This document shows positions 10,648 through 42,823 of a DNA stretch of 64,000 bases, in pieces (the stretch's first letter is position 1; each line of letters begins with the position of its first letter). This DNA is from a virus (taxonomy: Duplodnaviria > Heunggongvirae > Uroviricota > Caudoviricetes): the IMG/VR virus record IMGVR_UViG_3300013105_000002, positions 1-64,000 of that record; one strand, given 5' to 3'. Made by a program: the position numbers and the translations under genes. The notes under the pieces are model-generated. The model was not told the origin of the DNA. It searched no databases and saw only the letters and a list, made by a program, of their open reading frames with translations.

Positions 10648-10649
10648 AT

Positions 10650-14566: not shown

Positions 14567-15050
14567 TCTATACGGCAAGGAATCGTACTCACAGTCCAAG
14601 TGTATTTTCCTCGCTGGTCCCATCGAGGCTTGGTGGGACACTCCTGAGAATCCCAATATGTGGAATTCTCCTGAGGCGGTGGCGTATCGAGAGCATCGCA
14701 CAAAGGTGGCTGACGCACTGGTTGCTGAAGGCTTCCTTGTGTACCGCCCGTGGGGTGCGTTCCGTGGAGACTGGAATGAGAAGTTCCAAGGTGTCAATGA
14801 CTATGTGCTTCTGCGTTCAGATGCAGTCACAGAACTGACACCGCCGAACACACCAGCGGTCGGTACGCGTCATGAGGTTGGCCTAGCACTTCGTAACAAG
14901 ATTCCTGTCATCGGCTTCCCTCCCGTTCCACCGGAGCACTTTGATCGATTCATGGAGCATCACATCAAGTACACGATTGATGCAATCGACAGGTGGGCGG
15001 TGTACCGTCAGGAGGCTCTTGACAGGGGCGATCTGCCTGTGCTAGACTAA
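14559..15050 (+). CDS. nucleoside 2-deoxyribosyltransferase-like protein
   Basis: GGAGG + GTG 14559; IFLAGPIE motif typical of nucleoside deoxyribosyltransferase family. Confidence 0.55.
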   Translation: MDSLYGKESYSQSKCIFLAGPIEAWWDTPENPNMWNSPEAVAYREHRTKVADALVAEGFLVYRPWGAFRGDWNEKFQGVNDYVLLRSDAVTELTPPNTPAVGTRHEVGLALRNKIPVIGFPPVPPEHFDRFMEHHIKYTIDAIDRWAVYRQEALDRGDLPVLD

Positions 15051-15065
15051 TACAACTGAATAATT

Positions 15066-15136
15066 GGGATATAGATGTTGTGGCCGCATGTCACCTTGCC
15101 ATGGTGATCGCACGGGTTCGATTCCCGTATATCCCT
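15066..15136 (+). tRNA. tRNA-Gly (anticodon GCC)
   Basis: acceptor gggatat/atatccc, anticodon stem tcacc/ggtga loop ttgccat, T-arm acggg-ttcgatt-cccgt. Confidence 0.75.
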
Positions 15137-15138
15137 CT

Positions 15139-15210
15139 GAGTCCGAGCCGGAGGCATCAGGAGTTGCACTGTGACTGCAATTATCGTGGGTTCGAATCCC
15201 ACCGGACTCC
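15139..15210 (+). tRNA. tRNA-His (anticodon GTG)
   Basis: acceptor gagtccg/cggactc, anticodon stem ttgca/tgcaa loop ctgtgac, T-arm gtggg-ttcgaat-cccac. Confidence 0.7.
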
Positions 15211-15227
15211 CTCAATAAAGGAGAATC

Positions 15228-26390: not shown

Positions 26391-26445
26391 ATACCCCGGG
26401 GGTATGGTGTTTTCTATACTCTTCTTTGGTATACACTGGGGGTAT
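26391..26445 (+). repeat. two operator-type palindromes without promoter (ATACCCCGGGGGTAT 26391-26405; ATACACTGGGGGTAT 26431-26445)
   Basis: same ATACCC-N-GGGTAT family as downstream array. Confidence 0.6.
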
Positions 26446-26462
26446 ACACCTACCGGCGATAG

Positions 26463-26514
26463 ATACCCCGAAGGGTATCTATGGACTTGACACGTCTTTA
26501 CAGACTGATAGTCT
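26463..26514 (+). promoter_or_regulatory. operator + promoter P1 (leaderless gene 26521)
   Basis: op 26463-26478; -35 TTGACA 26487-26492; -10 TAGTCT 26509-26514; ATG 6 nt downstream. Confidence 0.6.
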
Positions 26515-26520
26515 TCTCTC

Positions 26521-27102
26521 ATGACAACAAACACCACGCCCCACACGAACCACATCCTTGCGGCATACCTGCGAGCATCCGAGGACGACCGTGCCTTTGG
26601 TATCGCTTGGTACCCCGCCGCTCGTGCCCTTGCTGAGAATCTTCTACCTGAGGACGTGAGCACCGCCGCAGGTGTTCTTGCTGCCATGTCTCCCATGACG
26701 TCATGGCCCGAGAACGTCAAGCGCGCGACTGTCGCCATCATGGGTGGCAAGGTCTCGCACACTGGCCCGAACGTTGACAAGGTTCTGCGCATCCTGTCCG
26801 GTGAGCACCCGCTCGACGTGCTGTCCGGTCCCAAGACTCGCGCGTTCTACCTCAACATCATGGGAATCGACAGTGACGAGACGGTCACTGTGGACAGACA
26901 CGCTATCGACGTGGCATGCGGTAATGTCCTCTCGGACTCCGACCGTGCCGGTGCCATCCGTGGCAAGGCAGGCTATGGTAAGGTCGCCGGTATGTACCGT
27001 GAGGCTGCAAGCGTTATCGGAATCACCCCGTGTGCCCTACAGGCCGTTGTTTGGGTGTACTGGCGGCGAAACGTTGCTCAGGCTTTCCACGGTGACGCGT
27101 GA
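26521..27102 (+). CDS. hypothetical protein
   Basis: 193-aa GC-rich ORF. Confidence 0.55.
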   Translation: MTTNTTPHTNHILAAYLRASEDDRAFGIAWYPAARALAENLLPEDVSTAAGVLAAMSPMTSWPENVKRATVAIMGGKVSHTGPNVDKVLRILSGEHPLDVLSGPKTRAFYLNIMGIDSDETVTVDRHAIDVACGNVLSDSDRAGAIRGKAGYGKVAGMYREAASVIGITPCALQAVVWVYWRRNVAQAFHGDA

Positions 27103-27234
27103 GGCTTGACACAAAAATCATTGCGGGGCTAGTGATCATGCTTGCCACTAGCCCCGTATGGTTTCCCATAGCGGTATTTTTCTACCTACTAGCACAGTGA
27201 GGTAGGTGGGCGCAAGCCCACCGGCCTTACATTT

Positions 27235-27305
27235 GTACCCCGAGGGTATTAGATACACCGGGGGTATGTGTAGGGCTTGACGCCCGGTAGGTACTCGGGT
27301 AATGT
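27235..27305 (+). promoter_or_regulatory. two operators + promoter P2 (drives ORF-less transcript)
   Basis: ops 27235-27249, 27253-27267; -35 TTGACG 27277-27282; -10 TAATGT 27300-27305. Confidence 0.55.
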
Positions 27306-27311
27306 TGTCCT

Positions 27312-27685
27312 TGTTGGAAGAGACCGAGGCACACAAGCGGTGAGAGTCCGTTATTCCAACGCACTACCGGAGTGGATAGCAAGTCGCTGCTTGGCTTGCA
27401 AGGACGAAACTCCACTAGGGTTGACTTTAAATCAGCCCCTTTGATTTGTGAATAGAGAGAGTCCACGACTCAGACACAAGCCTCTCATGGCGAGCCGTCA
27501 ATGATTTAGACACCACGCTACTAGTGACACGTTCCATGGAACACGTCCACGCCTCTGACGTTCTCTATTAAACGTTGTATCCGAATGCACGCATCCGTGA
27601 TAACATGACCAATGTCTCTCTCTAGGGTAGGTCTGATCAACCTACCGGCCCCGAGCGCAATGCATGGCGCTCGGGGTCTCATATT
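27312..27685 (+). ncRNA. candidate ~375-nt noncoding RNA (ncRNA-1)
   Basis: promoter P2 to strong terminator (ggccccgagcgc/gcgctcggggtc 27647-27678 + U tail); no ORF >11 aa; multiple hairpins incl. GNRA-looped stems. Confidence 0.5.
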
Positions 27686-27694
27686 GTCATCCAT

Positions 27695-27745
27695 ATACAC
27701 TGGGGGTATCTAGACTCTTGACATGAGCGCTGGTAGGCATAGACT
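27695..27745 (+). promoter_or_regulatory. operator + promoter P3
   Basis: op ATACACTGGGGGTAT 27695-27709; -35 TTGACA 27718-27723; -10 TAGACT 27740-27745. Confidence 0.55.
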
Positions 27746-27751
27746 GAGGAT

Positions 27752-27949
27752 ATGAAATCACCACGAAGAGCAATCATCTACAGCCACGGGCTACGCCCTG
27801 CATTTGACAAGCGCAAGTACAGCGATGACAAGAATCAGGCGCGGCGTGCTGCGAAGGGCGGTGTGCCTTGTGAGAAGTGTGGCAGGGTATACAAAGACCC
27901 CAACAGAAAGCACAACTCCGATCCCAAGAACAAGACGCCATGCCTTTGA
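27752..27949 (+). CDS. hypothetical basic protein
   Basis: 65 aa; CEKCG pair. Confidence 0.5.
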   Translation: MKSPRRAIIYSHGLRPAFDKRKYSDDKNQARRAAKGGVPCEKCGRVYKDPNRKHNSDPKNKTPCL

Positions 27950-27963
27950 GCATGGCCCCCTAT

Positions 27964-27993
27964 ATATCCCTAGGGTATGTCAGAGACTTGACA
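27964..27993 (+). promoter_or_regulatory. operator + -35 of promoter P4
   Basis: op ATATCCCTAGGGTAT 27964-27978; -35 TTGACA 27988-27993; -10 unclear. Confidence 0.4.
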
Positions 27994-28022
27994 GCCCTGA
28001 AGACACATGAGAGAGTATGCAT

Positions 28023-28178
28023 ATGAACAGGAACAAGCGGGCGCAGGCCCCCAAGCGAATCAACCGTCATGACTCTGCAATCGGTGACAAGCGCCGTGCG
28101 CGAAGTGGTCCGGTCATCCGAGGACAGCGTTTCGACAGGAACGATTTCCGCAACCAGAGCATGCGGGGTGAGTGGTGA
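28023..28178 (+). CDS. small basic protein (51 aa)
   Basis: ATG directly downstream of P4. Confidence 0.35.
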   Translation: MNRNKRAQAPKRINRHDSAIGDKRRARSGPVIRGQRFDRNDFRNQSMRGEW

Positions 28179-28336
28179 AGACTTTCGATCCTCTAGAGGT
28201 GACCCTCGTTTATGTCGATGTTCTTGGTACTGAGTACCGACAGAGTGCTGCCGACATTGTGGAAGTTGGAACCCTCATCGATCCTGACACCGGCGACGAT
28301 ATGGAACTCGTGCGAGTCGAAGTTCCCAACAACTAG
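28175..28336 (+). CDS. small acidic protein (53 aa)
   Basis: GTGA overlap; ends before next operator. Confidence 0.35.
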   Translation: MKTFDPLEVTLVYVDVLGTEYRQSAADIVEVGTLIDPDTGDDMELVRVEVPNN

Positions 28337-28366
28337 CAGATTGGCCCTTCGGGGTCAAGCCCCAAT

Positions 28367-28447
28367 ATACCCTGAGTGTATGTCTTGGAGGTATATACCC
28401 TAGGGGTACCAAACCGTATTGACACACCCCCGGCATCCCTGTAATGT
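28367..28447 (+). promoter_or_regulatory. two operators + promoter P5
   Basis: ops 28367-28381, 28395-28409; -35 TTGACA 28419-28424; -10 TAATGT 28442-28447. Confidence 0.55.
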
Positions 28448-28453
28448 TTGAGT

Positions 28454-28550
28454 TGTTGGAGAGAGCAACGGTGAACCAAAGAGTGTGCTTCAAGTCTGGC
28501 ACCGGATTGGGAAAGGGCACTCTCTCCAACTCAGAAAGTTTCTTAGCACA
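28454..28550 (+). ncRNA. structured RNA element (ncRNA-2 or long 5' leader of Lsr2-like gene)
   Basis: 5' TTGTTGGAGAGAG pairs with downstream CTCTCTCCAAC; 5' end paralogous to ncRNA-1; no ORF. Confidence 0.4.
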
Positions 28551-28555
28551 ATCGC

Positions 28556-28584
28556 TTGACACTCTGGTCTACATGGATTAGAGT
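28556..28584 (+). promoter_or_regulatory. promoter P6 (no operator) TTGACA-17-TAGAGT
   Basis: -35 28556-28561, -10 28579-28584; RBS GAAAGGA then ATG 28639. Confidence 0.5.
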
Positions 28585-28638
28585 ACGTAGTACCGGGAAA
28601 GAGACACACGGTCTCTCCCAAACGAAAGGACAACCATC

Positions 28639-29025
28639 ATGGCTTCCAAGCGCATCGCCAACCCGACCGAGGTCCGCACGTGGGCTGCCGCCAACCTCGC
28701 CACCATCGACGGGCTCCCCGAGGGCTACCGCCTCGGTGACCGGGGTCAGTTCCCGCCCGCCGTCATCACCGCCTTCAACAAGGCGCACAAGAACGTCAAG
28801 TACGTGCGTGGCGCGTTCGTCAACAAGACGGCGGTCAAGTTCACCCGCGTGACCGACAAGGGCCGCAAGGTGCCCGGTGTGGCTCACATCGACACCACGA
28901 AGGTCCGTGAGGCTGCCCGTGAGGCCGGTCTGGCGCTCCCGTCCAAGGGCCGTCTTCCGCAGGCCGTGAAGGTCGCCTACGCGCAGGGTCCGGACGCCCT
29001 GAAGGCGCTTGCCGCCACGGTCTGA
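28639..29025 (+). CDS. Lsr2-like DNA-binding protein with two tandem Lsr2-type C-terminal domains
   Basis: VRTWAAANL..LGDRGQFPPAVITAF and VREAAREAGLALPSKGRLPQAVKVAY resemble Lsr2 DBD (RGRIPADVIDAY). Confidence 0.65.
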   Translation: MASKRIANPTEVRTWAAANLATIDGLPEGYRLGDRGQFPPAVITAFNKAHKNVKYVRGAFVNKTAVKFTRVTDKGRKVPGVAHIDTTKVREAAREAGLALPSKGRLPQAVKVAYAQGPDALKALAATV

Positions 29026-29033
29026 AGGCCGCA

Positions 29034-29057
29034 GGGCCTCCCCTCCGGGGGAGGCCC
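29034..29057 (+). terminator. hairpin terminator
   Basis: gggcctcccc tcc ggggaggccc. Confidence 0.55.
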
Positions 29058-29075
29058 TAGCCTTTCGTCTATCAC

Positions 29076-29128
29076 ATACCCCAAGGGTATCCCATCGGAG
29101 TTGACAGGCTACTGTGAGCGTGTAGACT
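29076..29128 (+). promoter_or_regulatory. operator + promoter P7
   Basis: op ATACCCCAAGGGTAT 29076-29090; -35 TTGACA 29101-29106; -10 TAGACT 29123-29128. Confidence 0.6.
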
Positions 29129-29160
29129 GAACCTATCAACCCACGACATTGGAGGAACCA

Positions 29161-29586
29161 ATGAGCAAGCACTACCCCGGAACTCCCAAGGCATGGGCCG
29201 CCGAGCGCGGTCTCTGTGGCACGGGACGTGGACGCCCGCCCAAGGCTGCCATGGATGCCATTGCGGCTGCCATCGCTGACGGTTGGACGTTCGGCGGTGG
29301 GTCGGTGGTGGTGAACAAGTCCGCTGAGCCCACGGGGCCGGTGGTGGAGAAGCCCAAGGACGACAGCCCCAAGGGTGAGGCTGAAGGCGTGAACGTCTAC
29401 GCTGACGCGTTCTACCGCTATGACCGTGAGCAGAAATTCTACTATGAGCATGAGGGCAAGCGTCACGAGTGCTCTGGTCGCACGGCTTGCATGGGCTGTG
29501 GATACAGTCTCATTGGACACACGTGCAACGAAATGGTAGGCTTGACCAAGCACGGACAGAAAGTCATCAAGCCGCTGGGAGAGTGA
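29161..29586 (+). CDS. protein with N-terminal Lsr2-type DNA-binding motif and C-terminal Cys cluster
   Basis: RBS GGAGG; KAWAAERG..GRGRPPKAAMDAIAAA; C-terminal HECSGRTACMGCG. Confidence 0.55.
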   Translation: MSKHYPGTPKAWAAERGLCGTGRGRPPKAAMDAIAAAIADGWTFGGGSVVVNKSAEPTGPVVEKPKDDSPKGEAEGVNVYADAFYRYDREQKFYYEHEGKRHECSGRTACMGCGYSLIGHTCNEMVGLTKHGQKVIKPLGE

Positions 29587-29589
29587 CAT

Positions 29590-29862
29590 ATGGCACGCAT
29601 GAGCATTGAACAGAAACTCGCTGACAAGGTGGTGGATGCCACTCTGAGAGCAGACTTCGATGCGCCTCGGTTTGCCTACATCATGAACCGTTGTGGATGG
29701 AAGATTCAGGAAGTTCTGTTTCAGGTGGTGCTCGGGATGATCCGTCACTGGGCTATTGACCTAGAGACGGACAACACCAAGGGTGGAGCCGATGAGTATT
29801 ACCGGCTGACCATCAAGGCGAAAATCCTGCAGGATGCCATCGACCGTAACAAAATCGAGTGA
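29590..29862 (+). CDS. hypothetical protein
   Basis: 90-aa ORF. Confidence 0.5.
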   Translation: MARMSIEQKLADKVVDATLRADFDAPRFAYIMNRCGWKIQEVLFQVVLGMIRHWAIDLETDNTKGGADEYYRLTIKAKILQDAIDRNKIE

Positions 29863-29911
29863 GATTAGGGAGTCATCGTAAGAGGTGGCTCCCTACCTCA
29901 TTGGGGTATGC

Positions 29912-29990
29912 ATACCCTTGGGGTATTTGTATTGATACATACCCCGGGGGTATTGTCAGGGCTTGACGGATGACTCTGAGGTGATAGTCT
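29912..29990 (+). promoter_or_regulatory. operators + promoter P8 (leaderless)
   Basis: ops 29912-29926, 29939-29953 (plus inverted copy 29903-29917); -35 TTGACG 29963-29968; -10 TAGTCT 29985-29990; ATG 6 nt later. Confidence 0.6.
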
Positions 29991-29996
29991 TTAGCC

Positions 29997-30509
29997 ATGA
30001 ACCTCACAGACGCACAGATGCTCGCACGCACGGCTCTCGACGCCCACGGTCTCACCGACAAGGGTTGGCGAGTCGAGTGGGACAATGCCAAGAGGCGCAA
30101 CGGCTCTGCCTCATCCTCTGCTCGTGTCATCACCCTGTCGGCACCGCTGACGCACCTGAAGACACCTGAAGAGATGCGTCAGACCATTGGTCACGAAATC
30201 GCTCACGCCCTTGTTGGTACCCAGCACGGACACGGGCCGGTGTGGAAGGCCAAGATGCGGGAGTTGGGCCTAGTCGTGTCCACTACGGCAGTCCTCTCGG
30301 AAGAGACACGCGGCCAGATTGCCACGCTGAGGAACTACACCCTCACGTGCGTGGTGAACGGCAAGAGTCTCGGACACCTTGACAGGATCGTCAAGCAGCG
30401 CAAGGTCAGGCGCGGGGGCGGGTATGTCCTACGTACCTATGGCGCTCGTGTCTGCAAGTGCCACGGGGAGCCTGTCCTCTACAACGGCAAGTCATGGGAC
30501 GATATCTGA
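29997..30509 (+). CDS. SprT-like zinc metallopeptidase
   Basis: GHEIAHAL (HExxH) + downstream H/G; C-terminal CKCHG zinc ribbon. Confidence 0.7.
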   Translation: MNLTDAQMLARTALDAHGLTDKGWRVEWDNAKRRNGSASSSARVITLSAPLTHLKTPEEMRQTIGHEIAHALVGTQHGHGPVWKAKMRELGLVVSTTAVLSEETRGQIATLRNYTLTCVVNGKSLGHLDRIVKQRKVRRGGGYVLRTYGARVCKCHGEPVLYNGKSWDDI

Positions 30510-30538
30510 AAGGCAAGGCCCTACGGGGTCTAACCGTT

Positions 30539-30590
30539 ATACCCTGAGGGTAATTCCACCATTGACACCCGCGCCGGTAGGTGGTTGAAT
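30539..30590 (+). promoter_or_regulatory. operator + promoter P9
   Basis: op 30539-30553; -35 TTGACA 30562-30567; -10 TTGAAT 30585-30590. Confidence 0.5.
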
Positions 30591-30622
30591 AGCACTATCA
30601 ACCAAACGTCCTAGGAGGACAC

Positions 30623-30805
30623 ATGAAGACGGTAACTCTCTACTTCGTTGCACAGCCCGAGCCTGATGGCAGCACGCCGAACCCGAGCCTCTTCTACCTG
30701 AACGAAGACTACGACTTCGTGTCTCAGGAAGTTCCTCAGGGTGAGCGTGTCTACAGCGTCGGCGCGATCCTCATGGATGACACTGTGGAGGAAGTTGCCA
30801 ACTGA
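30623..30805 (+). CDS. hypothetical protein
   Basis: RBS AGGAGG; 60 aa. Confidence 0.5.
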   Translation: MKTVTLYFVAQPEPDGSTPNPSLFYLNEDYDFVSQEVPQGERVYSVGAILMDDTVEEVAN

Positions 30806-30825
30806 GCCCTTCGGGGTTTAGCCAC

Positions 30826-30875
30826 ATACCCTGAGGGTATGTCTCACTTGACAAGCGCCGGTGGATGCGTAGACT
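30826..30875 (+). promoter_or_regulatory. operator + promoter P10 (leaderless)
   Basis: op ATACCCTGAGGGTAT 30826-30840; -35 30848-30853; -10 TAGACT 30870-30875. Confidence 0.6.
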
Positions 30876-30881
30876 AGAGGC

Positions 30882-31097
30882 ATGGACATGGAAATCATTG
30901 ACACAGTACAGGCCCACACGTTGGAGCCGGGAGACACCATCGAGTACATCGATGACGAGGGACGCCGCTCACTTCAAGAAATCAAGAGCGCCGAAGACCT
31001 CGGAGACACCATCCGTGTGCAGTTGGAAGACTACGACGACGTAGACCTCTATGCTGATGGTGAGCAGAACATCTACGGATATCCTGCCGAAGACTGA
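30882..31097 (+). CDS. hypothetical acidic protein
   Basis: 71-aa ORF. Confidence 0.5.
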   Translation: MDMEIIDTVQAHTLEPGDTIEYIDDEGRRSLQEIKSAEDLGDTIRVQLEDYDDVDLYADGEQNIYGYPAED

Positions 31098-31162
31098 CAG
31101 GAACGCGGGGGAGTCGGAGAAATTCGGCTCCCCCAAACCTGTATCGTAAAGCCCATGAACAT

Positions 31163-31263
31163 TTCCCGAGGGTATCTACATACCCCAAGGGTATAGGATC
31201 ACACAAAACAAATACCCCATGAGGTATGGATGGGCTTGACAGGTCTCTGGGAACTGATAGTCT
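31163..31263 (+). promoter_or_regulatory. three operators + promoter P11 (leaderless)
   Basis: ops 31163-31175, 31180-31194, 31212-31227; -35 TTGACA 31236-31241; -10 TAGTCT 31258-31263. Confidence 0.6.
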
Positions 31264-31269
31264 TTACCT

Positions 31270-31635
31270 ATGAACGAACGAGACAAGCCGATGACCGGCG
31301 AGCACGCAGCAATCATCTTCGCGCAGGGCCTCACCGCCAAGTTCGCAGACAGCGAGTGGCCGTACAACCCTGAGTTCTCCGCTGATCTTTCGGGCAAGAA
31401 GTACATCCGAATCGTCAATGAGGGCAACCCTCACCCCGAGGACCAGACAACGAACCTGTACCGTCGTCAGCGCTCGTGCCACGCGTACGTGGACCGCGAG
31501 ACGGGCGAGGTGTACAAGTCCTCAGGATGGAAGGGTGGACCGGCCAAGGTCAACGGCAAGGCCGATGCACGATACCCCAACGTTTGGGAGGCTCTGGTCA
31601 AGGCTGACCGGAACGGAGGATACCTGTACAAGTAA
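31270..31635 (+). CDS. hypothetical protein
   Basis: 121-aa ORF. Confidence 0.55.
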   Translation: MNERDKPMTGEHAAIIFAQGLTAKFADSEWPYNPEFSADLSGKKYIRIVNEGNPHPEDQTTNLYRRQRSCHAYVDRETGEVYKSSGWKGGPAKVNGKADARYPNVWEALVKADRNGGYLYK

Positions 31636-31653
31636 CAGGTGTCAAGCAGGGAA

Positions 31654-31767
31654 ATACCCTTCGGGGTATTTTCTTGTTCTTACCCTATACCCTAGGGGTA
31701 TGCCTTGAAACGAAATACCCTTGGGGTATGGGATGGTGTTGACAGCCCTGCTCCCATGGTGTTTACT
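31654..31767 (+). promoter_or_regulatory. three operators + promoter P12 (leaderless)
   Basis: ops 31654-31669, 31687-31701, 31715-31729; -35 TTGACA 31739-31744; -10 TTTACT 31762-31767. Confidence 0.55.
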
Positions 31768-31773
31768 AGAGAT

Positions 31774-32037
31774 ATGAACAAGCAGACGCGCAAAGCGTAC
31801 CTCACTGACCTTGGTGCCCGTATCTACAATGCGGACACCTCCACCGAACTCATCGTGATCGCCACGGACATGGCAGATGCCGCGTCCATGGGTCGCTCGG
31901 AGACATGGAAGGGTGCTTGCACGATGGCAGGACGACGCACCCTCGCCAAGTTCAACATCGGTGTCCCGGTGCCATTCAAGGACGTTGGTGCCGTGGTCCA
32001 GCAAGGCTACGATGCCATGGTGGCAGCCAACAAGTAA
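31774..32037 (+). CDS. hypothetical protein
   Basis: ORF 31705 start overlaps promoter; ATG 31774 used. Confidence 0.5.
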   Translation: MNKQTRKAYLTDLGARIYNADTSTELIVIATDMADAASMGRSETWKGACTMAGRRTLAKFNIGVPVPFKDVGAVVQQGYDAMVAANK

Positions 32038-32042
32038 GCCCG

Positions 32043-32064
32043 CTAGGCCCCTCCGGGGGCCTAG
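32043..32064 (+). terminator. hairpin terminator
   Basis: ctaggcccc tccg ggggcctag. Confidence 0.5.
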
Positions 32065-32079
32065 CCTTATTAGCATGAG

Positions 32080-32131
32080 ATACACCGGGGGTATGTTCTA
32101 GGCTTGACACACACTACCAGACTGATAGTAT
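32080..32131 (+). promoter_or_regulatory. operator + promoter P13 (leaderless)
   Basis: op ATACACCGGGGGTAT 32080-32094; -35 32104-32109; -10 TAGTAT 32126-32131. Confidence 0.6.
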
Positions 32132-32137
32132 TTACCC

Positions 32138-32371
32138 ATGAGCCAAATGACATTCCACGAGCAGTTCGGTGAAGTTTCTGTCGCACAACTCCGTGCATAC
32201 AAGGCGCACAACGTCTCTCAGTCCGACCACGACTCCCTCGCCACGTTCTACTCCGAGGGCGGCCACGAGTCCATCACAAAGGCGGTGAAAGACCCACGCA
32301 ACCACGTGCCCGGAACGAGGTTGTTCTCGTGGCACACGTGGTACTCCAACACCGAGCGTTACAACTGGTGA
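32138..32371 (+). CDS. hypothetical protein
   Basis: 77-aa ORF. Confidence 0.5.
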   Translation: MSQMTFHEQFGEVSVAQLRAYKAHNVSQSDHDSLATFYSEGGHESITKAVKDPRNHVPGTRLFSWHTWYSNTERYNW

Positions 32372-32406
32372 ACACACCGGCCCTACGGGGTCCGTGTGTA
32401 TACCCC

Positions 32407-32458
32407 GGGGGTAATTAGAGTGTTGACCACCAGCGCCGGTAGGTGTAGAGTAAAGGTA
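32407..32458 (+). promoter_or_regulatory. operator + promoter P14 (drives ORF-less transcript)
   Basis: op 32407-32421; -35 TTGACC 32430-32435; -10 TAGAGT 32453-32458. Confidence 0.5.
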
Positions 32459-32464
32459 TTGAAG

Positions 32465-32606
32465 GGGATGGAAGGACGCAAGGTGCAAATCCCTGCTAGC
32501 AATTGAACCCTTCGACGCAAGACATGTATGTGACAGTGCATGCCATAGAGACTAGTCATCTCGCCGGGGCCTGAGCCTGACTAACTCAGGTCTCTTGCTT
32601 TTGCCA
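32465..32606 (+). ncRNA. candidate ~140-nt noncoding RNA (ncRNA-3)
   Basis: no + strand ORF; ends in hairpin cctgag...ctcagg + tctcttgcttttg. Confidence 0.4.
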
Positions 32607-32611
32607 TACAC

Positions 32612-32758
32612 ATACCCTAGGGGTAAATTCGGCTCCTAGAATCGCTTATCGTAAACGGTCTGTTCGCTATCCCCCAAGGGTGCACATACCCTCGTGGGAT
32701 TTGATATACCCTTGGGGTATGCCAGACAGGTTGACACGTCCCGGCATGTGAGTAGACT
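32612..32758 (+). promoter_or_regulatory. operators + promoter P15
   Basis: ops 32612-32626, 32686-32700, 32706-32720; -35 32731-32736; -10 TAGACT 32753-32758; leader with RBS GAGGAAA. Confidence 0.55.
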
Positions 32759-32795
32759 TGGACCATCAGCCAAACCGAGTAGTGAGGAAACTACA

Positions 32796-33065
32796 ATGGC
32801 ACGTCAACTCCGAGTCATCGCCCGCGAGATCGTGAAGGACTACGCAGACAAGGGCAAGCCGGTCACGCCGTTTGCCAAGCCGTACGTGGACGCGATGCTC
32901 ACGATGGACAGCGTGGCCGACACCTACGGAGCCGAGAGTGGCGAGTACGTCGTCCTCTACGGGCTGCACAACCTCTCCGGATGGCGAGGCGAGAAGGCAC
33001 GCGAGGTGAAGGCCGAACTGAAGGCTCTTGTCTCCGAGCATCGCAGGGCGAACCCGCGCCGGTGA
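32796..33065 (+). CDS. hypothetical protein
   Basis: ATG 32796 after RBS; 89 aa. Confidence 0.5.
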   Translation: MARQLRVIAREIVKDYADKGKPVTPFAKPYVDAMLTMDSVADTYGAESGEYVVLYGLHNLSGWRGEKAREVKAELKALVSEHRRANPRR

Positions 33066-33070
33066 GTGGA

Positions 33071-33090
33071 GGGGACTTCGGTCCCCTTTT
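33071..33090 (+). terminator. rho-independent terminator
   Basis: ggggac ttcg gtcccc tttt. Confidence 0.6.
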
Positions 33091-33104
33091 CTCATACCCT
33101 GCCA

Positions 33105-33156
33105 ATACCCCGAGGGTATAGTTTGGTGTTGACAGGTCGGGCGGTAGGAGTAGACT
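33105..33156 (+). promoter_or_regulatory. operator + promoter P16 (leaderless)
   Basis: op ATACCCCGAGGGTAT 33105-33119; -35 33129-33134; -10 TAGACT 33151-33156. Confidence 0.6.
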
Positions 33157-33162
33157 GAGAAC

Positions 33163-33375
33163 ATGAAAACGATCAATGGATGCGCAGTCATCGCCCACCG
33201 TCCCTACGGCAACACCCTTCCGTCTGAGGGTTTCGTGATCCTCGCAGTCAAGACGCTCGGTGACTCTTACGAGTACATCACTGCTGTTGTCTCCACGCTC
33301 GATGACAGGGAGTGGTTCTGGGGTCACTACATCACCTCGCTAGAGGAAGCCACGTCCGACTACTTCTCTCGCTGA
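33163..33375 (+). CDS. hypothetical protein
   Basis: 70-aa ORF. Confidence 0.5.
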   Translation: MKTINGCAVIAHRPYGNTLPSEGFVILAVKTLGDSYEYITAVVSTLDDREWFWGHYITSLEEATSDYFSR

Positions 33376-33405
33376 GAGGGGAGGCCCCACGGGGTCTTTC
33401 CATAT

Positions 33406-33457
33406 ATACCCTGAGGGTATGTCAACGCATTGACAGCCCTCCAATCCTTGATAGGAT
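33406..33457 (+). promoter_or_regulatory. operator + promoter P17 (leaderless)
   Basis: op 33406-33420; -35 33430-33435; -10 TAGGAT 33452-33457. Confidence 0.55.
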
Positions 33458-33463
33458 GTAGTC

Positions 33464-33631
33464 ATGTACTACGACATGGACGACCACCGTTGCTTCGACT
33501 GTGATGGGCGCTACTGCCCACCGGGCCAGTGCCTCCGTACCGAGACCTCCGTGTGGGTCGTGGGTCACGGTTGGACCGACCCCGAGACTGCCAAGGGCTT
33601 TGAGGCTCTGGGAAGGACGGTGCAGTGGTGA
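33464..33631 (+). CDS. small Cys-rich protein (55 aa)
   Basis: CFDCDGRYCPPGQC; below track cutoff. Confidence 0.4.
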   Translation: MYYDMDDHRCFDCDGRYCPPGQCLRTETSVWVVGHGWTDPETAKGFEALGRTVQW

Positions 33632-33649
33632 GGCTTCGGCCTTACACAT

Positions 33650-33701
33650 ATCCCCTAAGGGTATGTCTAGGTGTTGACACCTGACCTGTAGGGTGTAGAC
33701 T
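33650..33701 (+). promoter_or_regulatory. operator + promoter P18
   Basis: op ATCCCCTAAGGGTAT 33650-33664; -35 33674-33679; -10 TAGACT 33696-33701. Confidence 0.55.
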
Positions 33702-33708
33702 TAGGGAC

Positions 33709-33918
33709 ATGAAGACGATCACAGTGACCATGACCGGCGAGGCTTTCGAGTCCTACAGCGTGGACGGGGCCTACTTCCCCGAGTTCAAGAACGACGAGAG
33801 CGGCGAGTGGGATGCCATTCCTGCCGTCTTCGTCGGACGCCCCATCATGCACCGTGGACAGGTGGGAGACGCAACGATCCTCTACGGGCTCGACGTTCGG
33901 AAGGTGACAATGCAGTAA
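33709..33918 (+). CDS. hypothetical protein
   Basis: 69-aa ORF. Confidence 0.5.
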   Translation: MKTITVTMTGEAFESYSVDGAYFPEFKNDESGEWDAIPAVFVGRPIMHRGQVGDATILYGLDVRKVTMQ

Positions 33919-33950
33919 AGGGCAGGCCCCTCCGGGGGTCACTCCCATAT

Positions 33951-34003
33951 ATACCCTCGGGGTAAGTCTGAGACTTGACATGCATGCCCTAGGGGTACAT
34001 AAT
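33951..34003 (+). promoter_or_regulatory. operator + promoter P19 (leaderless); half-operator inside spacer
   Basis: op 33951-33965; -35 33975-33980; -10 CATAAT 33998-34003. Confidence 0.5.
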
Positions 34004-34009
34004 TGGAAC

Positions 34010-34213
34010 ATGAACACGATCCGAGACCTCATCCTCACCGCCAACGGTGGCAGTATGCACACGGCCACCCTGAACACGCTCACCATGCTTGTGTTCGCGG
34101 TCCTCTTCATCGCTGCCGGTGTTGCTTGCGCCTACGTCGTGGCAGCCCTCACGGCACAGCACAAGGCTCACATGCACACCGACAAGGTGACCGTCATCAC
34201 CGACGCACAGTGA
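34010..34213 (+). CDS. small membrane protein
   Basis: ATG 34010; one TM helix. Confidence 0.5.
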   Translation: MNTIRDLILTANGGSMHTATLNTLTMLVFAVLFIAAGVACAYVVAALTAQHKAHMHTDKVTVITDAQ

Positions 34214-34229
34214 CCCCGGAAGGGGCTAT

Positions 34230-34281
34230 ATACCCTTAGGGTATGTTTGAGGTTTGACACAATGCCCCAAACTGATATGCT
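34230..34281 (+). promoter_or_regulatory. operator + promoter P20
   Basis: op ATACCCTTAGGGTAT 34230-34244; -35 34254-34259; -10 TATGCT 34276-34281. Confidence 0.55.
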
Positions 34282-34309
34282 TGTCCTACCAACCACGGAA
34301 GGGGACACA

Positions 34310-34516
34310 ATGTCTCGCAAGGATTACGAAGCGCTCGCGGCAGTCATCGCGGGTGAGGTGGCATGTGCGGCAGGTAACAAGGACAAACTGCGCACGTCCT
34401 CCAACATCGCTCGGAGCATGGCTGACGTGTTCCACCGTGGAAACGAGCGTTTCGACCGTGTGCGCTTTTACAAGGCTTGCGGACTGGACATGACGGGCGG
34501 TTTCCCCGACGTGTGA
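34310..34516 (+). CDS. hypothetical protein
   Basis: RBS GGAAGGGGA + ATG 34310. Confidence 0.5.
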   Translation: MSRKDYEALAAVIAGEVACAAGNKDKLRTSSNIARSMADVFHRGNERFDRVRFYKACGLDMTGGFPDV

Positions 34517-34521
34517 GAGCG

Positions 34522-34545
34522 TGGCCCCTACGGGGGCCATTGCTT
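34522..34545 (+). terminator. rho-independent terminator
   Basis: tggcccc tacg ggggcca + ttgctttt. Confidence 0.6.
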
Positions 34546-34556
34546 TTACCTAGCAT

Positions 34557-34608
34557 ATACCCTCGGGGTATATATAGGCTTGACAGTGCACCTAGGGTGT
34601 GATTGAAT
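34557..34608 (+). promoter_or_regulatory. operator + promoter P21
   Basis: op ATACCCTCGGGGTAT 34557-34571; -35 34580-34585; -10 TTGAAT 34603-34608. Confidence 0.55.
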
Positions 34609-34644
34609 TGTCTTCTCAACCAGAACACCTCCCAAGGAGACACC

Positions 34645-34785
34645 ATGATCGTCGAAATCCGCAACAACGGTCTCATCATCGACTACGTGGTAATGCCTAA
34701 CTTCCGAGCGGCTGTCATGTTCACCCAGAGATTCAACCGAGTCTCCACAAACAAGGGTTTCACCCAGAGGGCGGTGATCGCCTGA
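34645..34785 (+). CDS. hypothetical protein (46 aa)
   Basis: RBS AAGGAGA + ATG 34645. Confidence 0.4.
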   Translation: MIVEIRNNGLIIDYVVMPNFRAAVMFTQRFNRVSTNKGFTQRAVIA

Positions 34786-34806
34786 GCCCTTCGGGGCTTT
34801 CCCCAT

Positions 34807-34858
34807 ATACACTCGGGGTATATCAATGGCTTGACACGAGGCCGGTATTTGATATGCT
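34807..34858 (+). promoter_or_regulatory. operator + promoter P22 (drives ORF-less transcript)
   Basis: op ATACACTCGGGGTAT 34807-34821; -35 34831-34836; -10 TATGCT 34853-34858. Confidence 0.55.
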
Positions 34859-34864
34859 TGTTAT

Positions 34865-34968
34865 ATGAGGTCGGAGGGAGAGCGGACCAAAAAAGTCTCA
34901 CCGTCAGAGAAGACGCAAATCGCACAGTGAGTCTAGGCTGCAAGGGTCTAGGCTCACTTGTTTGTCTA
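34865..34968 (+). ncRNA. candidate ~105-nt noncoding RNA (ncRNA-4)
   Basis: no ORF; 3' hairpin gtgagtctaggc...ctaggctcac 34927-34957 + TTGTTTG. Confidence 0.45.
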
Positions 34969-34972
34969 TAGA

Positions 34973-35023
34973 ATACCCTAGGGGTATACAAGTGGCTTGA
35001 CACATGCCGCCGATCTGATAGAG
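34973..35023 (+). promoter_or_regulatory. operator + promoter P23 (leaderless)
   Basis: op ATACCCTAGGGTAT 34973-34986; -35 34996-35001; -10 TAGAGT 35018-35023. Confidence 0.55.
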
Positions 35024-35029
35024 TTCTCA

Positions 35030-35113
35030 CATGGGAATCATCATCGTGTCACTGCTCGCAGCAATCTTTTGGCGCATCGCCATCAGCCCGATCATCGACA
35101 GTTTCAACAAGTA
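35030..35113 (+). CDS. tiny hydrophobic peptide (27 aa)
   Basis: ATG 6 nt after -10; followed by strong terminator. Confidence 0.25.
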
Positions 35114-35120
35114 GGGCGTG

Positions 35121-35148
35121 AAAGGCCCGGAGAAATCCGGGCCTTTTG
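35121..35148 (+). terminator. rho-independent terminator
   Basis: aaggcccgga gaaa tccgggcctt + ttgcg. Confidence 0.65.
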
Positions 35149-35175
35149 CGTGTCATCGTAAAAGGCCCAATTGGT

Positions 35176-35190
35176 ATACCCCAAGGGTAC
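35176..35190 (+). repeat. orphan operator copy ATACCCCAAGGGTAC
   Basis: no -35 downstream; sits before bidirectional terminator. Confidence 0.5.
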
Positions 35191-35206
35191 AAAACGGGCA
35201 TGAGAA

Positions 35207-35235
35207 GACCCTAGGTGCGCCGCTCACCTAGGGTC
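35207..35235. terminator. bidirectional terminator (perfect 11-bp stem)
   Basis: gaccctaggtg cgccgct cacctagggtc between convergent + and - genes. Confidence 0.6.
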
Positions 35236-35245
35236 TCTCTGGGTC

Positions 35246-35398
35246 TCAGGCCATGGACACCTCACGCTTCCACGTGGAGCGCTCACGGCGCTTGGCGATC
35301 CGTCGTGCCATCTTACGGGCGCTGGGCGCGTCACCGCAGCAAGAGCAGTCACGACCACCGGGGCCGTAGGGGCAGGACTTGCCAATCATGCGAGCCAT
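35246..35398 (-). CDS. small basic Cys-rich protein (50 aa), only minus-strand gene in the early array
   Basis: MARMIGKSCPYGPGGRDCSCCGD...RRIAKRRERSTWKR; own promoter. Confidence 0.45.
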   Translation of the reverse strand: MARMIGKSCPYGPGGRDCSCCGDAPSARKMARRIAKRRERSTWKREVSMA

Positions 35399-35437
35399 GA
35401 TTTTCTCTCTCTGTAGTTGTTTTTTCTTGCTGGGATA

Positions 35438-35467
35438 AACATATGACAGATGGCCGGTGGTGTCAAG
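35438..35467 (-). promoter_or_regulatory. minus-strand promoter CTTGACA-17-TATGTT
   Basis: revcomp of 35461-35467 = -35; revcomp of 35438-35443 = -10; divergent from P25. Confidence 0.5.
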
Positions 35468-35475
35468 CCGATCCA

Positions 35476-35555
35476 ATACCCCAAGGGTAAATCATCAGAC
35501 AGATACCCCTAGGGTATGTTTTTGGCTTGACGATGTTTCCGCATTCCCGTAGTGT
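35476..35555 (+). promoter_or_regulatory. two operators + promoter P25
   Basis: ops 35476-35490, 35503-35517; -35 TTGACG 35527-35532; -10 TAGTGT 35550-35555. Confidence 0.5.
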
Positions 35556-35601
35556 TTCTCTTGTCAGGAGGAAACGCCTCCCCCACACAAAAGGATTTGA
35601 A

Positions 35602-35895
35602 ATGTCGCTCTCCCTCGCCGGAACCAAGTCCACGGTTGTCTCGCCCGCCTCGCACGGCATCGACAACTACGGCCCCGAGGTGCAGGCAATCACCTTCAAG
35701 TACAACGGGGTCGCCTACACGATCAACCGTCGTGGCAACTCCAACGTCAAGGGCTTCCACTCCTTCCGGAACAACACGTACACGGTCACCAACGGCACCG
35801 ACCGTGTGTCGAACATGATCGTCAACCGTTTCGACTTCGTGTCCATCCTCTACACTGACGGTCGAATCGAGTCGAACGACTACACCGCTCGATGA
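35602..35895 (+). CDS. hypothetical protein
   Basis: RBS AAAGGA + ATG 35602; 97 aa. Confidence 0.5.
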   Translation: MSLSLAGTKSTVVSPASHGIDNYGPEVQAITFKYNGVAYTINRRGNSNVKGFHSFRNNTYTVTNGTDRVSNMIVNRFDFVSILYTDGRIESNDYTAR

Positions 35896-35900
35896 GAGGC

Positions 35901-35918
35901 AGGCCCCTTCGGGGGCCT
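35901..35918 (+). terminator. hairpin terminator
   Basis: aggcccc ttcg ggggcct. Confidence 0.55.
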
Positions 35919-35940
35919 AGCCTTTCGCCCATGACATACC

Positions 35941-35955
35941 CTCGGGGTATGTAGT
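35941..35955 (+). repeat. operator copy ATACCCTCGGGGTAT (weak promoter downstream)
   Basis: -35-like TTGTGT 35964-35969 only. Confidence 0.4.
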
Positions 35956-35993
35956 CTATTGTGTTACTGTCCGGTAGGGTATAGGGTGGTCAC

Positions 35994-36155
35994 ATGACCA
36001 AATACAAGTATGAGATTTTCCACGCTGTCAGTGGCGGCTTTTTCACGGGTCACCTTCACACGGTGTACTCCAACTCCAACGATGCCAACCTGTGGTGCGA
36101 GACGTTCGAACGTCAGGGCTACACGGGCCTCTACATGATCCGCAGGGAGGTCTAG
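35994..36155 (+). CDS. hypothetical protein (53 aa)
   Basis: + strand ORF; overlapping minus-strand ORF 35964-36239 judged spurious. Confidence 0.4.
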   Translation: MTKYKYEIFHAVSGGFFTGHLHTVYSNSNDANLWCETFERQGYTGLYMIRREV

Positions 36156-36183
36156 CACAAAGACCCTTCGGGGTCCATTAACA

Positions 36184-36236
36184 ATTACCCTCGGGGTATG
36201 TGTAGGGCTTGACATGATCCCCAGAACTGATAAACT
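36184..36236 (+). promoter_or_regulatory. operator + promoter P26 (leaderless)
   Basis: op 36184-36199; -35 36209-36214; -10 TAAACT 36231-36236. Confidence 0.55.
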
Positions 36237-36242
36237 CATGCC

Positions 36243-36461
36243 ATGAACGAAAACGAGATCACCCGCATCGTGGCCGACGCTCTGCGTGAGGCTTACGCCA
36301 TCAACACCGCTCAGTTCAAGGACGAGAAGGTGGAGCGTGAGACCGTGGACAGCGTGCTGTATGACGTTGCCTACAACATCGCTCAGGAGGTATGGCCCAC
36401 GCGCAGCCCTGAGTCTCCGGTCATGCCAGACGAGTGGTTGGAGGCGATCAAGGGTCGCTGA
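36243..36461 (+). CDS. hypothetical protein
   Basis: 72-aa ORF. Confidence 0.5.
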   Translation: MNENEITRIVADALREAYAINTAQFKDEKVERETVDSVLYDVAYNIAQEVWPTRSPESPVMPDEWLEAIKGR

Positions 36462-36466
36462 GGATA

Positions 36467-36487
36467 GGCTCCCACGGGAGCCTTTTC
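36467..36487 (+). terminator. rho-independent terminator
   Basis: ggctccc ac gggagcc + ttttcc. Confidence 0.6.
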
Positions 36488-36501
36488 CTTTACCCTACCG
36501 C

Positions 36502-36554
36502 ATACCCTAGGGGTATATATGGGGCTTGACATGGAGTCGGGCGGCAGGTAATGT
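36502..36554 (+). promoter_or_regulatory. operator + promoter P27
   Basis: op ATACCCTAGGGGTAT 36502-36516; -35 36526-36531; -10 TAATGT 36549-36554. Confidence 0.55.
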
Positions 36555-36589
36555 TCTTCTTGTCAGAACATCGATGAAAGGAAACTGAC

Positions 36590-36736
36590 ATGTACGAGCA
36601 CCCCGACCACGGCATCATGACTCTGGAAGAAGTTTGGATGACCGACGCTGGTGTGAAGTACGGTCGATTCGTGACCGTCAAGTGGGGAACGTCCATCAAC
36701 ATGCCCATCTGCATGGTGCACAAGTTGCCATCATGA
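36590..36736 (+). CDS. hypothetical protein (48 aa)
   Basis: RBS AAAGGA + ATG 36590. Confidence 0.4.
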   Translation: MYEHPDHGIMTLEEVWMTDAGVKYGRFVTVKWGTSINMPICMVHKLPS

Positions 36737-36753
36737 TGTAAAGGAAATCCGGT

Positions 36754-36778
36754 CAGCCCTTCGGGGTTGGCTGTTTTT
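36754..36778 (+). terminator. rho-independent terminator
   Basis: cagccc ttcg gggttg + ctgttttt. Confidence 0.6.
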
Positions 36779-36790
36779 CCGGTCAAGCCT

Positions 36791-36843
36791 ATACCCTTGG
36801 GGTATATCAGTACGCTTGACATGCCCCGATTTTCTGATTAGGC
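36791..36843 (+). promoter_or_regulatory. operator + promoter P28
   Basis: op ATACCCTTGGGGTAT 36791-36805; -35 36816-36821; weak -10 TTAGGC 36838-36843. Confidence 0.45.
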
Positions 36844-36881
36844 TGGGGCTACGCCCAAGCAACACCGACTAAGGAGACACC

Positions 36882-37151
36882 GTGAACGTCACCCCGAAGA
36901 CCGCCGCTCGCCAGATCGTCCTCGCCCGTGCGGAGCGTGCTGCAAAGCCCGTTTACACGTCCGAGACGGGCGTGGTGCGTCCGGTTCGCGTGGAGGCCGC
37001 TCCCATCGTGGAGGACGACCCGCACTGCTTCGTTTGTGGTCGGCACACGGATCACTTCGCAGAGCACGACGACATGGTGGAGGCTGGCACGGCCACCTAC
37101 GGCGAGGACGGGAGTGTCTACCCTGTCCCGTGGAACTTCATCCTCGGGTGA
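36882..37151 (+). CDS. hypothetical protein
   Basis: RBS AAGGAGA + GTG 36882; CFVCG..H pair. Confidence 0.5.
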   Translation: MNVTPKTAARQIVLARAERAAKPVYTSETGVVRPVRVEAAPIVEDDPHCFVCGRHTDHFAEHDDMVEAGTATYGEDGSVYPVPWNFILG

Positions 37152-37156
37152 GGCGA

Positions 37157-37178
37157 GGGGCCGAAAGGCCCCTTTCTT
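37157..37178 (+). terminator. rho-independent terminator
   Basis: ggggcc gaaa ggcccc + tttctt. Confidence 0.65.
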
Positions 37179-37190
37179 CATGTGTGTGAC

Positions 37191-37243
37191 ATACCCTCGG
37201 GGTATCCCAAAGTATTGACAAAAGCGCCGGTAGCAAATAGGCT
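37191..37243 (+). promoter_or_regulatory. operator + promoter P29
   Basis: op ATACCCTCGGGGTAT 37191-37205; -35 37215-37220; -10 TAGGCT 37238-37243. Confidence 0.55.
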
Positions 37244-42263: not shown

Positions 42264-42823
42264 ATGTATGTTCTCCTTGTGTTGGTTGTGAGCAGTTGTG
42301 TGGCGTGCTCAGGCTCTCAGTACCCGACGAGTCTAGCAGAATCGTCGCAGTCCGTCAACCTCCGGTACATGTGGTACAGTGGAGGCATGCAGAGCACACT
42401 ACCACACAGATCGCCGGGTGCCAACTTGACGACCCTATGGGGTATCTGCTACCATAGTACATAGTTCGACAGGTTAGCCGCCTTTCCCTAGAAACTTCAT
42501 AGATTTCACCCGACAAGGTGAGCACGTATGAAATACCCGGTTTACAAGGCGGCTACCAGTAGACCGGGTATTTCTGTACCCTCTACCAAGCAGGCCGGTA
42601 GGTCGAACGTACCGGCGTGGGGGAAACCGGGCCACATGATGGCTACTCCTGACCCTAAGCGCAAAGAAAAGTATCAGTCAACAAGATCGGCTACTGCGAA
42701 AATATCATCTAGGTGATATTTTTGAAGCACTGACTGCTTGACTTCGATACTATCCTATGCGTGAGCGACCCCTAGGCTTGTAAAACCATATAGGGTACGC
42801 CTATGTCCAAAAGAAAGAGAACA

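Follow-up and report, generated by a model that had tools for sequence, protein, structure and literature searches.

The 64,000 nucleotide (nt) stretch of DNA at positions 1 to 64,000 of the virus record IMGVR_UViG_3300013105_000002 (Caudoviricetes), called the window below, carries two neighbouring genes, A and B, whose products contain DNA-binding domains (DBDs) of the Lsr2 type. Lsr2 silences AT-rich foreign DNA in Actinobacteria, including the antibiotic clusters of Streptomyces and the virulence genes of mycobacteria. Gene A (28639-29025) encodes a protein of 128 amino acids (aa) with a pI of 10.5, and gene B (29161-29586) one of 141 aa; both lie on the + strand, as do the single genes, domains, promoters, hairpins and palindromes located below between 28396 and 30509. 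Each gene has a Shine-Dalgarno sequence and an ATG start consistent with its homologues, the ATG of gene B at 29161 being preceded by GGAGGA. The two open reading frames (ORFs) exist exactly as an earlier note, made from the DNA letters without database searches, had described them.

The product of gene A matched the Pfam family PF23359 (Lsr2_DNA-bd), which is the Lsr2 DBD now split off from PF11774, over two stretches (E=3.5e-12), its score of 45.9 bits exceeding the cut-off of 26.9 bits. When the two halves were scanned separately, the N-terminal half (aa 1-60) alone scored 28.7 bits (E=8e-7), the match being split by a 12-residue loop insertion, and the C-terminal half alone scored 22.4 bits (E=8e-5). 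Based on the ORF list, Pfam, the half scans, an AlphaFold model and the family profile, DBD1 was located at aa 9-49 (28663-28785), a beta-hairpin at aa 63-85 between the two DBDs, and DBD2 at aa 85-116 (28891-28986), followed by a C-terminal helix. The loops read R35-G36-Q37 in DBD1 and K103-G104-R105 in DBD2, and the family consensus is R-G-R at both. An AlphaFold2 model computed with the family alignment as input reached a pLDDT of 93.4 and contained a helix (9-22), a loop and a helix (40-49) for DBD1, the beta-hairpin (63-85), and again a helix (86-95), a loop and a helix (108-116) for DBD2 ahead of the last helix. As modelled, the whole chain is accounted for by DBD1, the beta-hairpin, DBD2 and the terminal helix. 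Consistently, the profile of the gene-A family matched the solved Lsr2 DBD structures 2KNG, 6QKP and 6QKQ with E=2e-7 to 6e-7, and gave no match at E<=10 to the solved structures of the Lsr2 N-terminal domain. An N-terminal oligomerisation domain of the PF11774 type was not found by Pfam at E<=1 in either A or B. The two Lsr2 DBDs that the earlier note had read in A, and the lack of the oligomerisation domain, were thus both confirmed.

When 1.84 billion representative proteins were searched exhaustively by HMMER with A as the query, 72 clusters were returned at E<1e-3, nearly all of 106-140 aa and aligned end to end, which places A in a family of small two-DBD proteins. PF23359 matched all of the 33 family members that were scanned, and the names of the ten members that were looked up, mostly from metagenome assemblies, were uninformative. 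A word-indexed homologue search returned one match for A and six for B, and NCBIfam gave no match. Foldseek comparisons of models A and B with the PDB, and of model A with BFVD, yielded no significant match, which is put down to domains too small for the method and to the low confidence of model B. Other layouts occur among metagenomic relatives of A (P0048, P0062, P0074 and P0071), namely three Lsr2 DBDs per chain, two DBDs with a C-terminal CxxC tail, acidic C-terminal tails, and an unrelated N-terminal domain joined to two DBDs; this variety indicates that multi-DBD proteins of the Lsr2 type form a diverse, unnamed class.

Gene B encodes a divergent Lsr2-type DBD at aa 6-41 (29176-29283) with the core R23-G24-R25-P26, a linker at aa 47-82 that is acidic, Pro/Lys-rich and predicted to be disordered, and a C-terminal beta-rich domain. 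An Lsr2 DBD was not detected in B by Pfam, which returned only sub-threshold AT_hook (E=0.04) and H-NS matches, whereas aa 10-49 matched phrog_6269 ('Lsr2-like DNA bridging protein') with E=9e-6 and aa 6-41 aligned to DBD1 of the gene-A family in hhalign (92.6%, E=5e-7); a helix-loop-helix is predicted for the same N-terminus. In the C-terminal domain, four predicted strands surround a CxxC loop, and the alignment of homologues defined the motif C110-x2-C113-x6-H120-x-C122 (29488-29526). All four residues are invariant in six of six homologues of the uncultured lineage, taken from metagenome assemblies; C110, C113 and C122 stay invariant when the cultured phages are included, and the homologues of known phages have a Cys at the position of H120. 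Judged from this conservation pattern, the cluster is a CCHC/CCCC motif that looks like a zinc site. A Cys4 site using C104 was rejected, as this position is not conserved and is occupied by C, V, A or I among the homologues. The domain belongs to no Pfam or PHROG family and gave no match in the fold search, a homologue search with its profile found nothing further, and one homologue of B showed a sub-threshold Phage_zn_bind hint within it. A comparison with Lsr2 DBD profiles had been set beforehand as the check on the pair; it was positive for A through PF23359, and for B it was negative in Pfam and positive through PHROG and hhalign. The third DBD that the earlier note had assigned to B is therefore upheld by the latter two methods only, and its Cys4-like cluster is present, though as a C2HC rather than a Cys4 arrangement.

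Neither megablast of the region nor tblastn with A, B and the consensus of the gene-A family gave a match in 50,697 phage records, and the link to known phages was found through portal synteny together with the annotation of the phages LukeCage and Muntaha. The portal protein of the window (gene at 49459-51087) is 57-60% identical to the portals of Streptomyces phages of 125-135 kb (Stanwilliamsviridae; PhagesDB cluster BE), and the order glycosyltransferase, ribonucleotide reductase (RNR), endolysin and portal is common to the window and these phages; the nearest cultured relatives of the window phage infect Streptomyces. LukeCage gp6, a protein of 170 aa, consists of a divergent DBD, a canonical DBD and the C-terminal sequence 'ACKCGYSLSHCSC', whose counterpart in B is 'ACMGCGYSLIGHTC'. 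With gp6 as the query, tblastn found 113 Streptomyces phages, nearly all with the annotation 'Lsr2-like DNA bridging protein', a label whose 'DNA bridging' part rests purely on annotation transfer. Two adjacent genes of this kind occur in Muntaha, gp237 (92 aa, two DBDs) and gp238 (183 aa, two DBDs and the Cys domain), and the next gene, gp239, resembles the window ORF at 29590-29862. The clade of B aligned with the known phage proteins in hhalign at 99.3% and E=1e-20, the aligned 123 columns reaching from the DBD at the N-terminus to the Cys motif, and this profile-profile comparison settles their homology. The gene-A family likewise aligned, at 97.8% and E=7e-13, with the two-DBD part of alignment A4, which combines the homologues of gene B and the BE-phage proteins.

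The position-by-position comparison shows which parts were kept. The N-terminal divergent DBD is common to B and the BE-cluster proteins, with G17, G24, R25, A30, A33, A37, G41 and F44 invariant, and the pattern ..GLA..G(R/K)GR.S..A..A...A...G..F of the BE proteins also holds in B. The C-terminal CxxC...(C/H)xC domain is shared as well, with H120 of B in place of a Cys. The middle canonical DBD, the only one that Pfam detects in the BE proteins, is absent from B, where the linker stands instead, and has its counterpart in A. The layout of the window is that of Muntaha, a small two-DBD gene followed by a gene with DBD and Cys domain and by a conserved gene of about 100 aa, except that the beta-hairpin separating the two DBDs of A is missing from gp237. 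In both the BE phages and the window the portal gene follows about 21-26 kb downstream of these genes, which occupy a region of higher GC. On these sequence comparisons, A and B together are the form, divergent and rearranged, that the multi-DBD module annotated as 'Lsr2-like DNA bridging protein' in the BE cluster takes in this lineage. The simplest history would be that a DBD-DBD-Cys gene was duplicated, after which A arose from one copy by loss of the Cys domain and B from the second by loss of the middle DBD. The novelty of the pair that the earlier note had implied was accordingly overstated, since over 110 Streptomyces phages of the BE cluster already carry annotated proteins of the same multi-DBD plus Cys design. 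PMC8612146 and PMC10066036 both deal with the lsr2 genes of BE phages; in the literature searched, the multi-DBD architecture of this family without oligomerisation domain was not spelled out. The comparison clarifies that architecture as one divergent DBD, one canonical DBD and a CCHC/CCCC domain, parts that in some lineages are split or duplicated into two genes.

The module is also conserved in uncultured phages. The run of A, B, a gene of 88-90 aa and a gene for an SprT-like protease is retained among them, with identities to the window proteins down to 27% for B and 40% for A, and the related contigs are of 128-134 kb. In the window the third member of this run is a conserved 90-aa partner gene (29590..29862; phrog_7210, function unknown) that is syntenic with Muntaha gp239, and the fourth is the SprT-like metalloprotease gene (29997..30509), which is retained 3' of the pair in most relatives. 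Scanning the IMG/VR and GTDB genomes with alignment patterns of A and B returned no relatives, so that, within the sensitivity of these scans, there was no sign of the module in prophages or among host genes. The dN/dS of A against the relative L001 was 0.13, and only this close pair is informative, as the GC bias at third codon positions (GC3) makes the values for distant pairs unreliable. The divergence of A and B is uneven between phages, with 44% and 77% for A and B, respectively, in L002, 55% and 81% in L007, and 58% and 53% in L006, which hints at mosaic exchange.

Gene A stands out by its composition. Its GC3 of 0.88 is the highest among the ORFs of the 64 kb (mean 0.57, sd 0.08), and the bias recurs in every relative examined, the counterparts in L001, L002, L006, L007, L013, L015 and L009 reaching 0.74-0.90, with much lower values in their neighbouring genes; Muntaha gp237 is at 0.90. 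The relatives with this bias share 40-58% protein identity with A of the window. Recent horizontal transfer as the sole cause of the high GC3 was rejected on the persistence of the bias across these relatives, and its retention despite such divergence was read as selection for host-like codons, that is, for high expression. Together, the very basic character and the top GC3 of A suggest an abundant early protein.

Promoter sequences of the host consensus type precede both genes. Gene A has a proximal sigma70-type promoter, TTGACA-N17-TAGAGT (28556-28584), whose hexamers are conserved in L001, L002, L006 and L007, and, about 130 nt beyond it and about 190 nt 5' of the start codon, an additional promoter, P1 (TTGACA-N17-TAATGT, 28419-28447), whose block is conserved in relatives and which follows the palindrome TACCCTAGGGGTA (28396-28408) found by a palindrome scan. 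The 5' untranslated region of A contains a hairpin, GGGAAAGAGAC..GGTCTCTCCC (28595-28619), read from the sequence and followed by the ribosome-binding site GAAAGGA; both arms are altered in L001 and L007 with the pairing kept. Within the tandem-promoter region ahead of A (28419-28638), a conserved leader block begins at ATGTTTGAGTTGTTGGA (28444), and the leader with its hairpin may represent a leader peptide, a small RNA or an mRNA-stabilising element. Between A and B lies a perfect 10-bp GC-rich hairpin, GGGCCTCCCC-TCCG-GGGGAGGCCC (29034-29057), also read from the sequence. A hairpin occupies the same place in L002, L006 and L007 with other stem sequences; it was not picked up by a terminator scan that depends on a T-tail, and from its form and position it is probably a terminator. 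Gene B has its own promoter, an exact TTGACA-N16-TAGACT (29101-29128) with hexamers conserved in relatives, and the palindrome TACCCCAAGGGTA (29077-29089) lies 11 bp before it.

These elements recur in the surrounding block. TTGACA-N16-18-TAnnnT occurs 35 times in the window against 1.2 expected, with about 21 of the copies on the + strand within 26487-37243, and many promoters of this block precede ORFs of 40-130 aa. By its sequence the block looks like an array of tiny promoter-led genes of the early type, some 25-30 in number, and recalls the host-takeover module that phage SPO1 has in its terminal redundancy. The palindrome TACCC-N3/4-GGGTA is present in 30 exact copies against 0.04 expected, all within 26392-37204 and none elsewhere in the window, and 14 of them are positioned 8-11 bp 5' of the TTGACA -35 hexamer of a + strand promoter. 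It was found in 7 of 9 loci of the uncultured lineage bearing an A/B-type module and in none of 5 BE-phage loci; among the uncultured relatives it is present in L001-L007 and L015 and absent from L013 and L014, both of which have A/B homologues. The palindrome may be the operator of some regulator, or an RNA hairpin or terminator. The GC content is about 55-63% from about 28 to 39 kb versus 49-52% in the flanking segments, with A and B at the start of the richer segment. In BE-cluster phages the lsr2 genes sit in terminal repeats of 10-12 kb with raised GC (PMC8612146; PMC10066036), which the GC-richer block holding A and B resembles in its GC.

The window as a whole has 52% GC and is part of a large tailed-phage genome, encoding besides the portal protein a prohead protease, an RNR, an endolysin and seven tRNAs. 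The tRNA genes (three Leu, two Thr, one Gly and one His) lie within 1572-15211. The glycosyltransferase gene (42803-43816; Pfam 'GT4-conflict', E=2e-13) lies directly 5' of the RNR gene, as in LukeCage, and a 681-aa protein (7247-9292) carries a GHKL-type ATPase domain at its N-terminus (HATPase_c_3, E=2e-7), the rest having no family match. An antisense ORF of 401 aa (28543-29748) that covers both A and B was rejected as a gene, since it is broken up in relatives and is thus a by-product of the high GC.

As to function, the Lsr2 DBD binds AT-rich DNA by means of its R-G-R loop, which contacts the minor groove, and both silencing and bridging by Lsr2 depend on N-terminal oligomerisation. Streptomyces genomes have about 70% GC or more, so that a phage with 52% GC would be a natural target of Lsr2, if its host is the one assumed from the cultured relatives. 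The earlier note had proposed that such proteins act as counter-silencers or as silencers of host or competitor DNA, which is a reasonable reading and in line with the one preferred here. From the DBD content, the missing oligomerisation domain and the established biology of Lsr2, we favour, tentatively and at a little under an even chance, the reading that A and B are early, abundant, multivalent and non-filamenting binders that compete with host Lsr2 or LsrL on the phage DNA. Both genes would be transcribed by the host RNA polymerase immediately after infection, and A would accumulate. The R/K-G-R/Q loops would enter the minor groove of AT-rich DNA in the manner of Lsr2, with avidity arising from several DBDs per chain in A, or from one DBD and a possibly dimerising zinc domain in B. 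High avidity would then be reached without the cooperative filament that silencing requires, and A and B would occupy the comparatively AT-rich phage genome and block or displace host Lsr2/LsrL, acting as a competitive anti-silencer or a protective coat. This reading is supported by the exact TTGACA-N16/17 promoter 5' of each gene and by the conservation of the module across divergent uncultured phages. Phage Lsr2 variants have been proposed to interfere with host silencing (PMC8612146; PMC10066036), and a 2026 preprint, as it appears in the reference list of PMC13587820, attributes immunity against AT-rich phages to an Lsr2-like silencer. In a stronger form, A and B would be dedicated DBD-only anti-silencers, a phage counter-defence against xenogeneic silencing of the Lsr2 type that wins the AT-rich phage DNA by multivalency without filaments. 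The extreme and lasting codon optimisation of A would then provide the stoichiometric amounts needed for coating the genome, and the CCHC domain of B might recruit or poison host Lsr2 or read the promoter-linked palindromes; this form is possible, yet we would sooner doubt than accept it.

Several points weigh against competition with host Lsr2. The loops of A deviate from R-G-R, and its affinity may consequently be below that of Lsr2; the DBD of B fails the Pfam model; and the promoters of A and B are consensus matches only. In mycobacteria, host Lsr2 aids phage replication, and its loss was not made good by lsr2 genes of phages (PMC10066036), so that the gain from antagonising Lsr2 is not obvious. 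A rigid chain with two DBDs could just as well bridge DNA and so mimic Lsr2 instead of opposing it. This last point leads to the alternative that A and B are architectural proteins of the phage itself, A bridging or compacting DNA through its two DBDs and B through zinc-domain dimers, which organise the phage genome or its replication zone and supply or boost the pro-phage role of host Lsr2 seen in mycobacteria. The two DBDs of A in one confidently modelled fold, together with a strong basic charge and codon optimisation as suits an abundant structural DNA binder, agree with such a role, as does the need of the zones of phage DNA replication for host Lsr2 (PMC10066036). The 'DNA bridging' annotation of the homologues points the same way but is a transferred label, and the mycobacteriophage lsr2 genes were, as noted, no substitute for host Lsr2; we consider this alternative unlikely, though worth serious attention.

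The same loops could also be directed at the host. A and B would then bind AT-rich host regions, such as promoters, Lsr2-bound islands or the origin, and shut off or reprogramme transcription or replication early in infection, which would suit their early-type promoters and their place in a block of tiny promoter-led genes like that of SPO1. The phage genome, however, offers far more AT-rich targets than a host genome of high GC, and the proteins would be titrated away from the latter, which makes a takeover role quite unlikely. Sequence-specific regulation of the early block, with B especially reading TACCC-N3/4-GGGTA about 10 bp 5' of many early promoters including its own, would explain the excess of the palindrome, its spacing from the -35 hexamers and its occurrence in uncultured A/B-type loci and not in BE phages. 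The palindrome, on the other hand, is GC-rich, and what Lsr2-type DBDs read is the minor-groove shape of AT-rich DNA; it is missing from L013 and L014 despite their A/B homologues, and its copies might be no more than RNA hairpins or terminators, so that we regard this role as very improbable. Harder still to credit is inter-phage competition, in which the two proteins would silence AT-rich phages that arrive as competitors during infection, or other mobile DNA, or keep them out. It has been proposed for phage lsr2 genes (PMC10066036) and was raised by the earlier note too, but silencing needs the oligomerisation that A and B lack, and the relatives are large lytic-type phages with a short window for exclusion.

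The A/B module, small and probably abundant early proteins built from Lsr2 DBDs, is a simple candidate for the means by which lytic actinophages of much lower GC than their hosts escape Lsr2. Should the two proteins indeed displace Lsr2, silent biosynthetic clusters could be awakened with them as ready-made tools.

Among the known systems, bacterial Lsr2 (Rv3597c of M. tuberculosis; Lsr2 and LsrL of Streptomyces) and the prophage silencer CgpS share with A and B a helix-loop-helix DBD with an R-G-R-type loop, which is C-terminal in those proteins. They differ in having an N-terminal dimerisation/oligomerisation domain, whereas A and B carry their DBDs in tandem or at the N-terminus without such a domain and therefore cannot form the filament needed for silencing (PMC5137423, PMC2367712). 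The N-terminal-only Lsr2 proteins of phage clusters BD, BK, EE and EH, and H-NST of pathogenic E. coli, are likewise fragments of silencers on mobile elements. Such fragments have been proposed to interfere with the host silencer, the N-terminal-only versions being likely dominant negatives that are thought to poison the filament (PMC8612146, PMC10066036). These proteins keep the oligomerisation domain and A and B the opposite half, the DBDs only, so that A and B would compete for DNA as the mirror image of the oligomerisation-domain decoys. The Ku-Lsr2-DBD fusion of cluster J mycobacteriophages (PMC8612146) is, like A and B, a case of the Lsr2 DBD used as a portable module. The fusion differs in carrying a single DBD, at the C-terminus of Ku, and in its presumed role at DNA ends. 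Eukaryotic HMGA proteins bear several R-G-R AT-hooks on a non-oligomerising chain, bind AT-rich DNA with avidity and compete with chromatin proteins. Their likeness to A and B is one on paper only, to which the exact R-G-R-P core of B and its weak AT_hook match may be added; there is no homology, and the hooks of HMGA are unstructured peptides, whereas A and B present theirs on folded helix-loop-helix domains.

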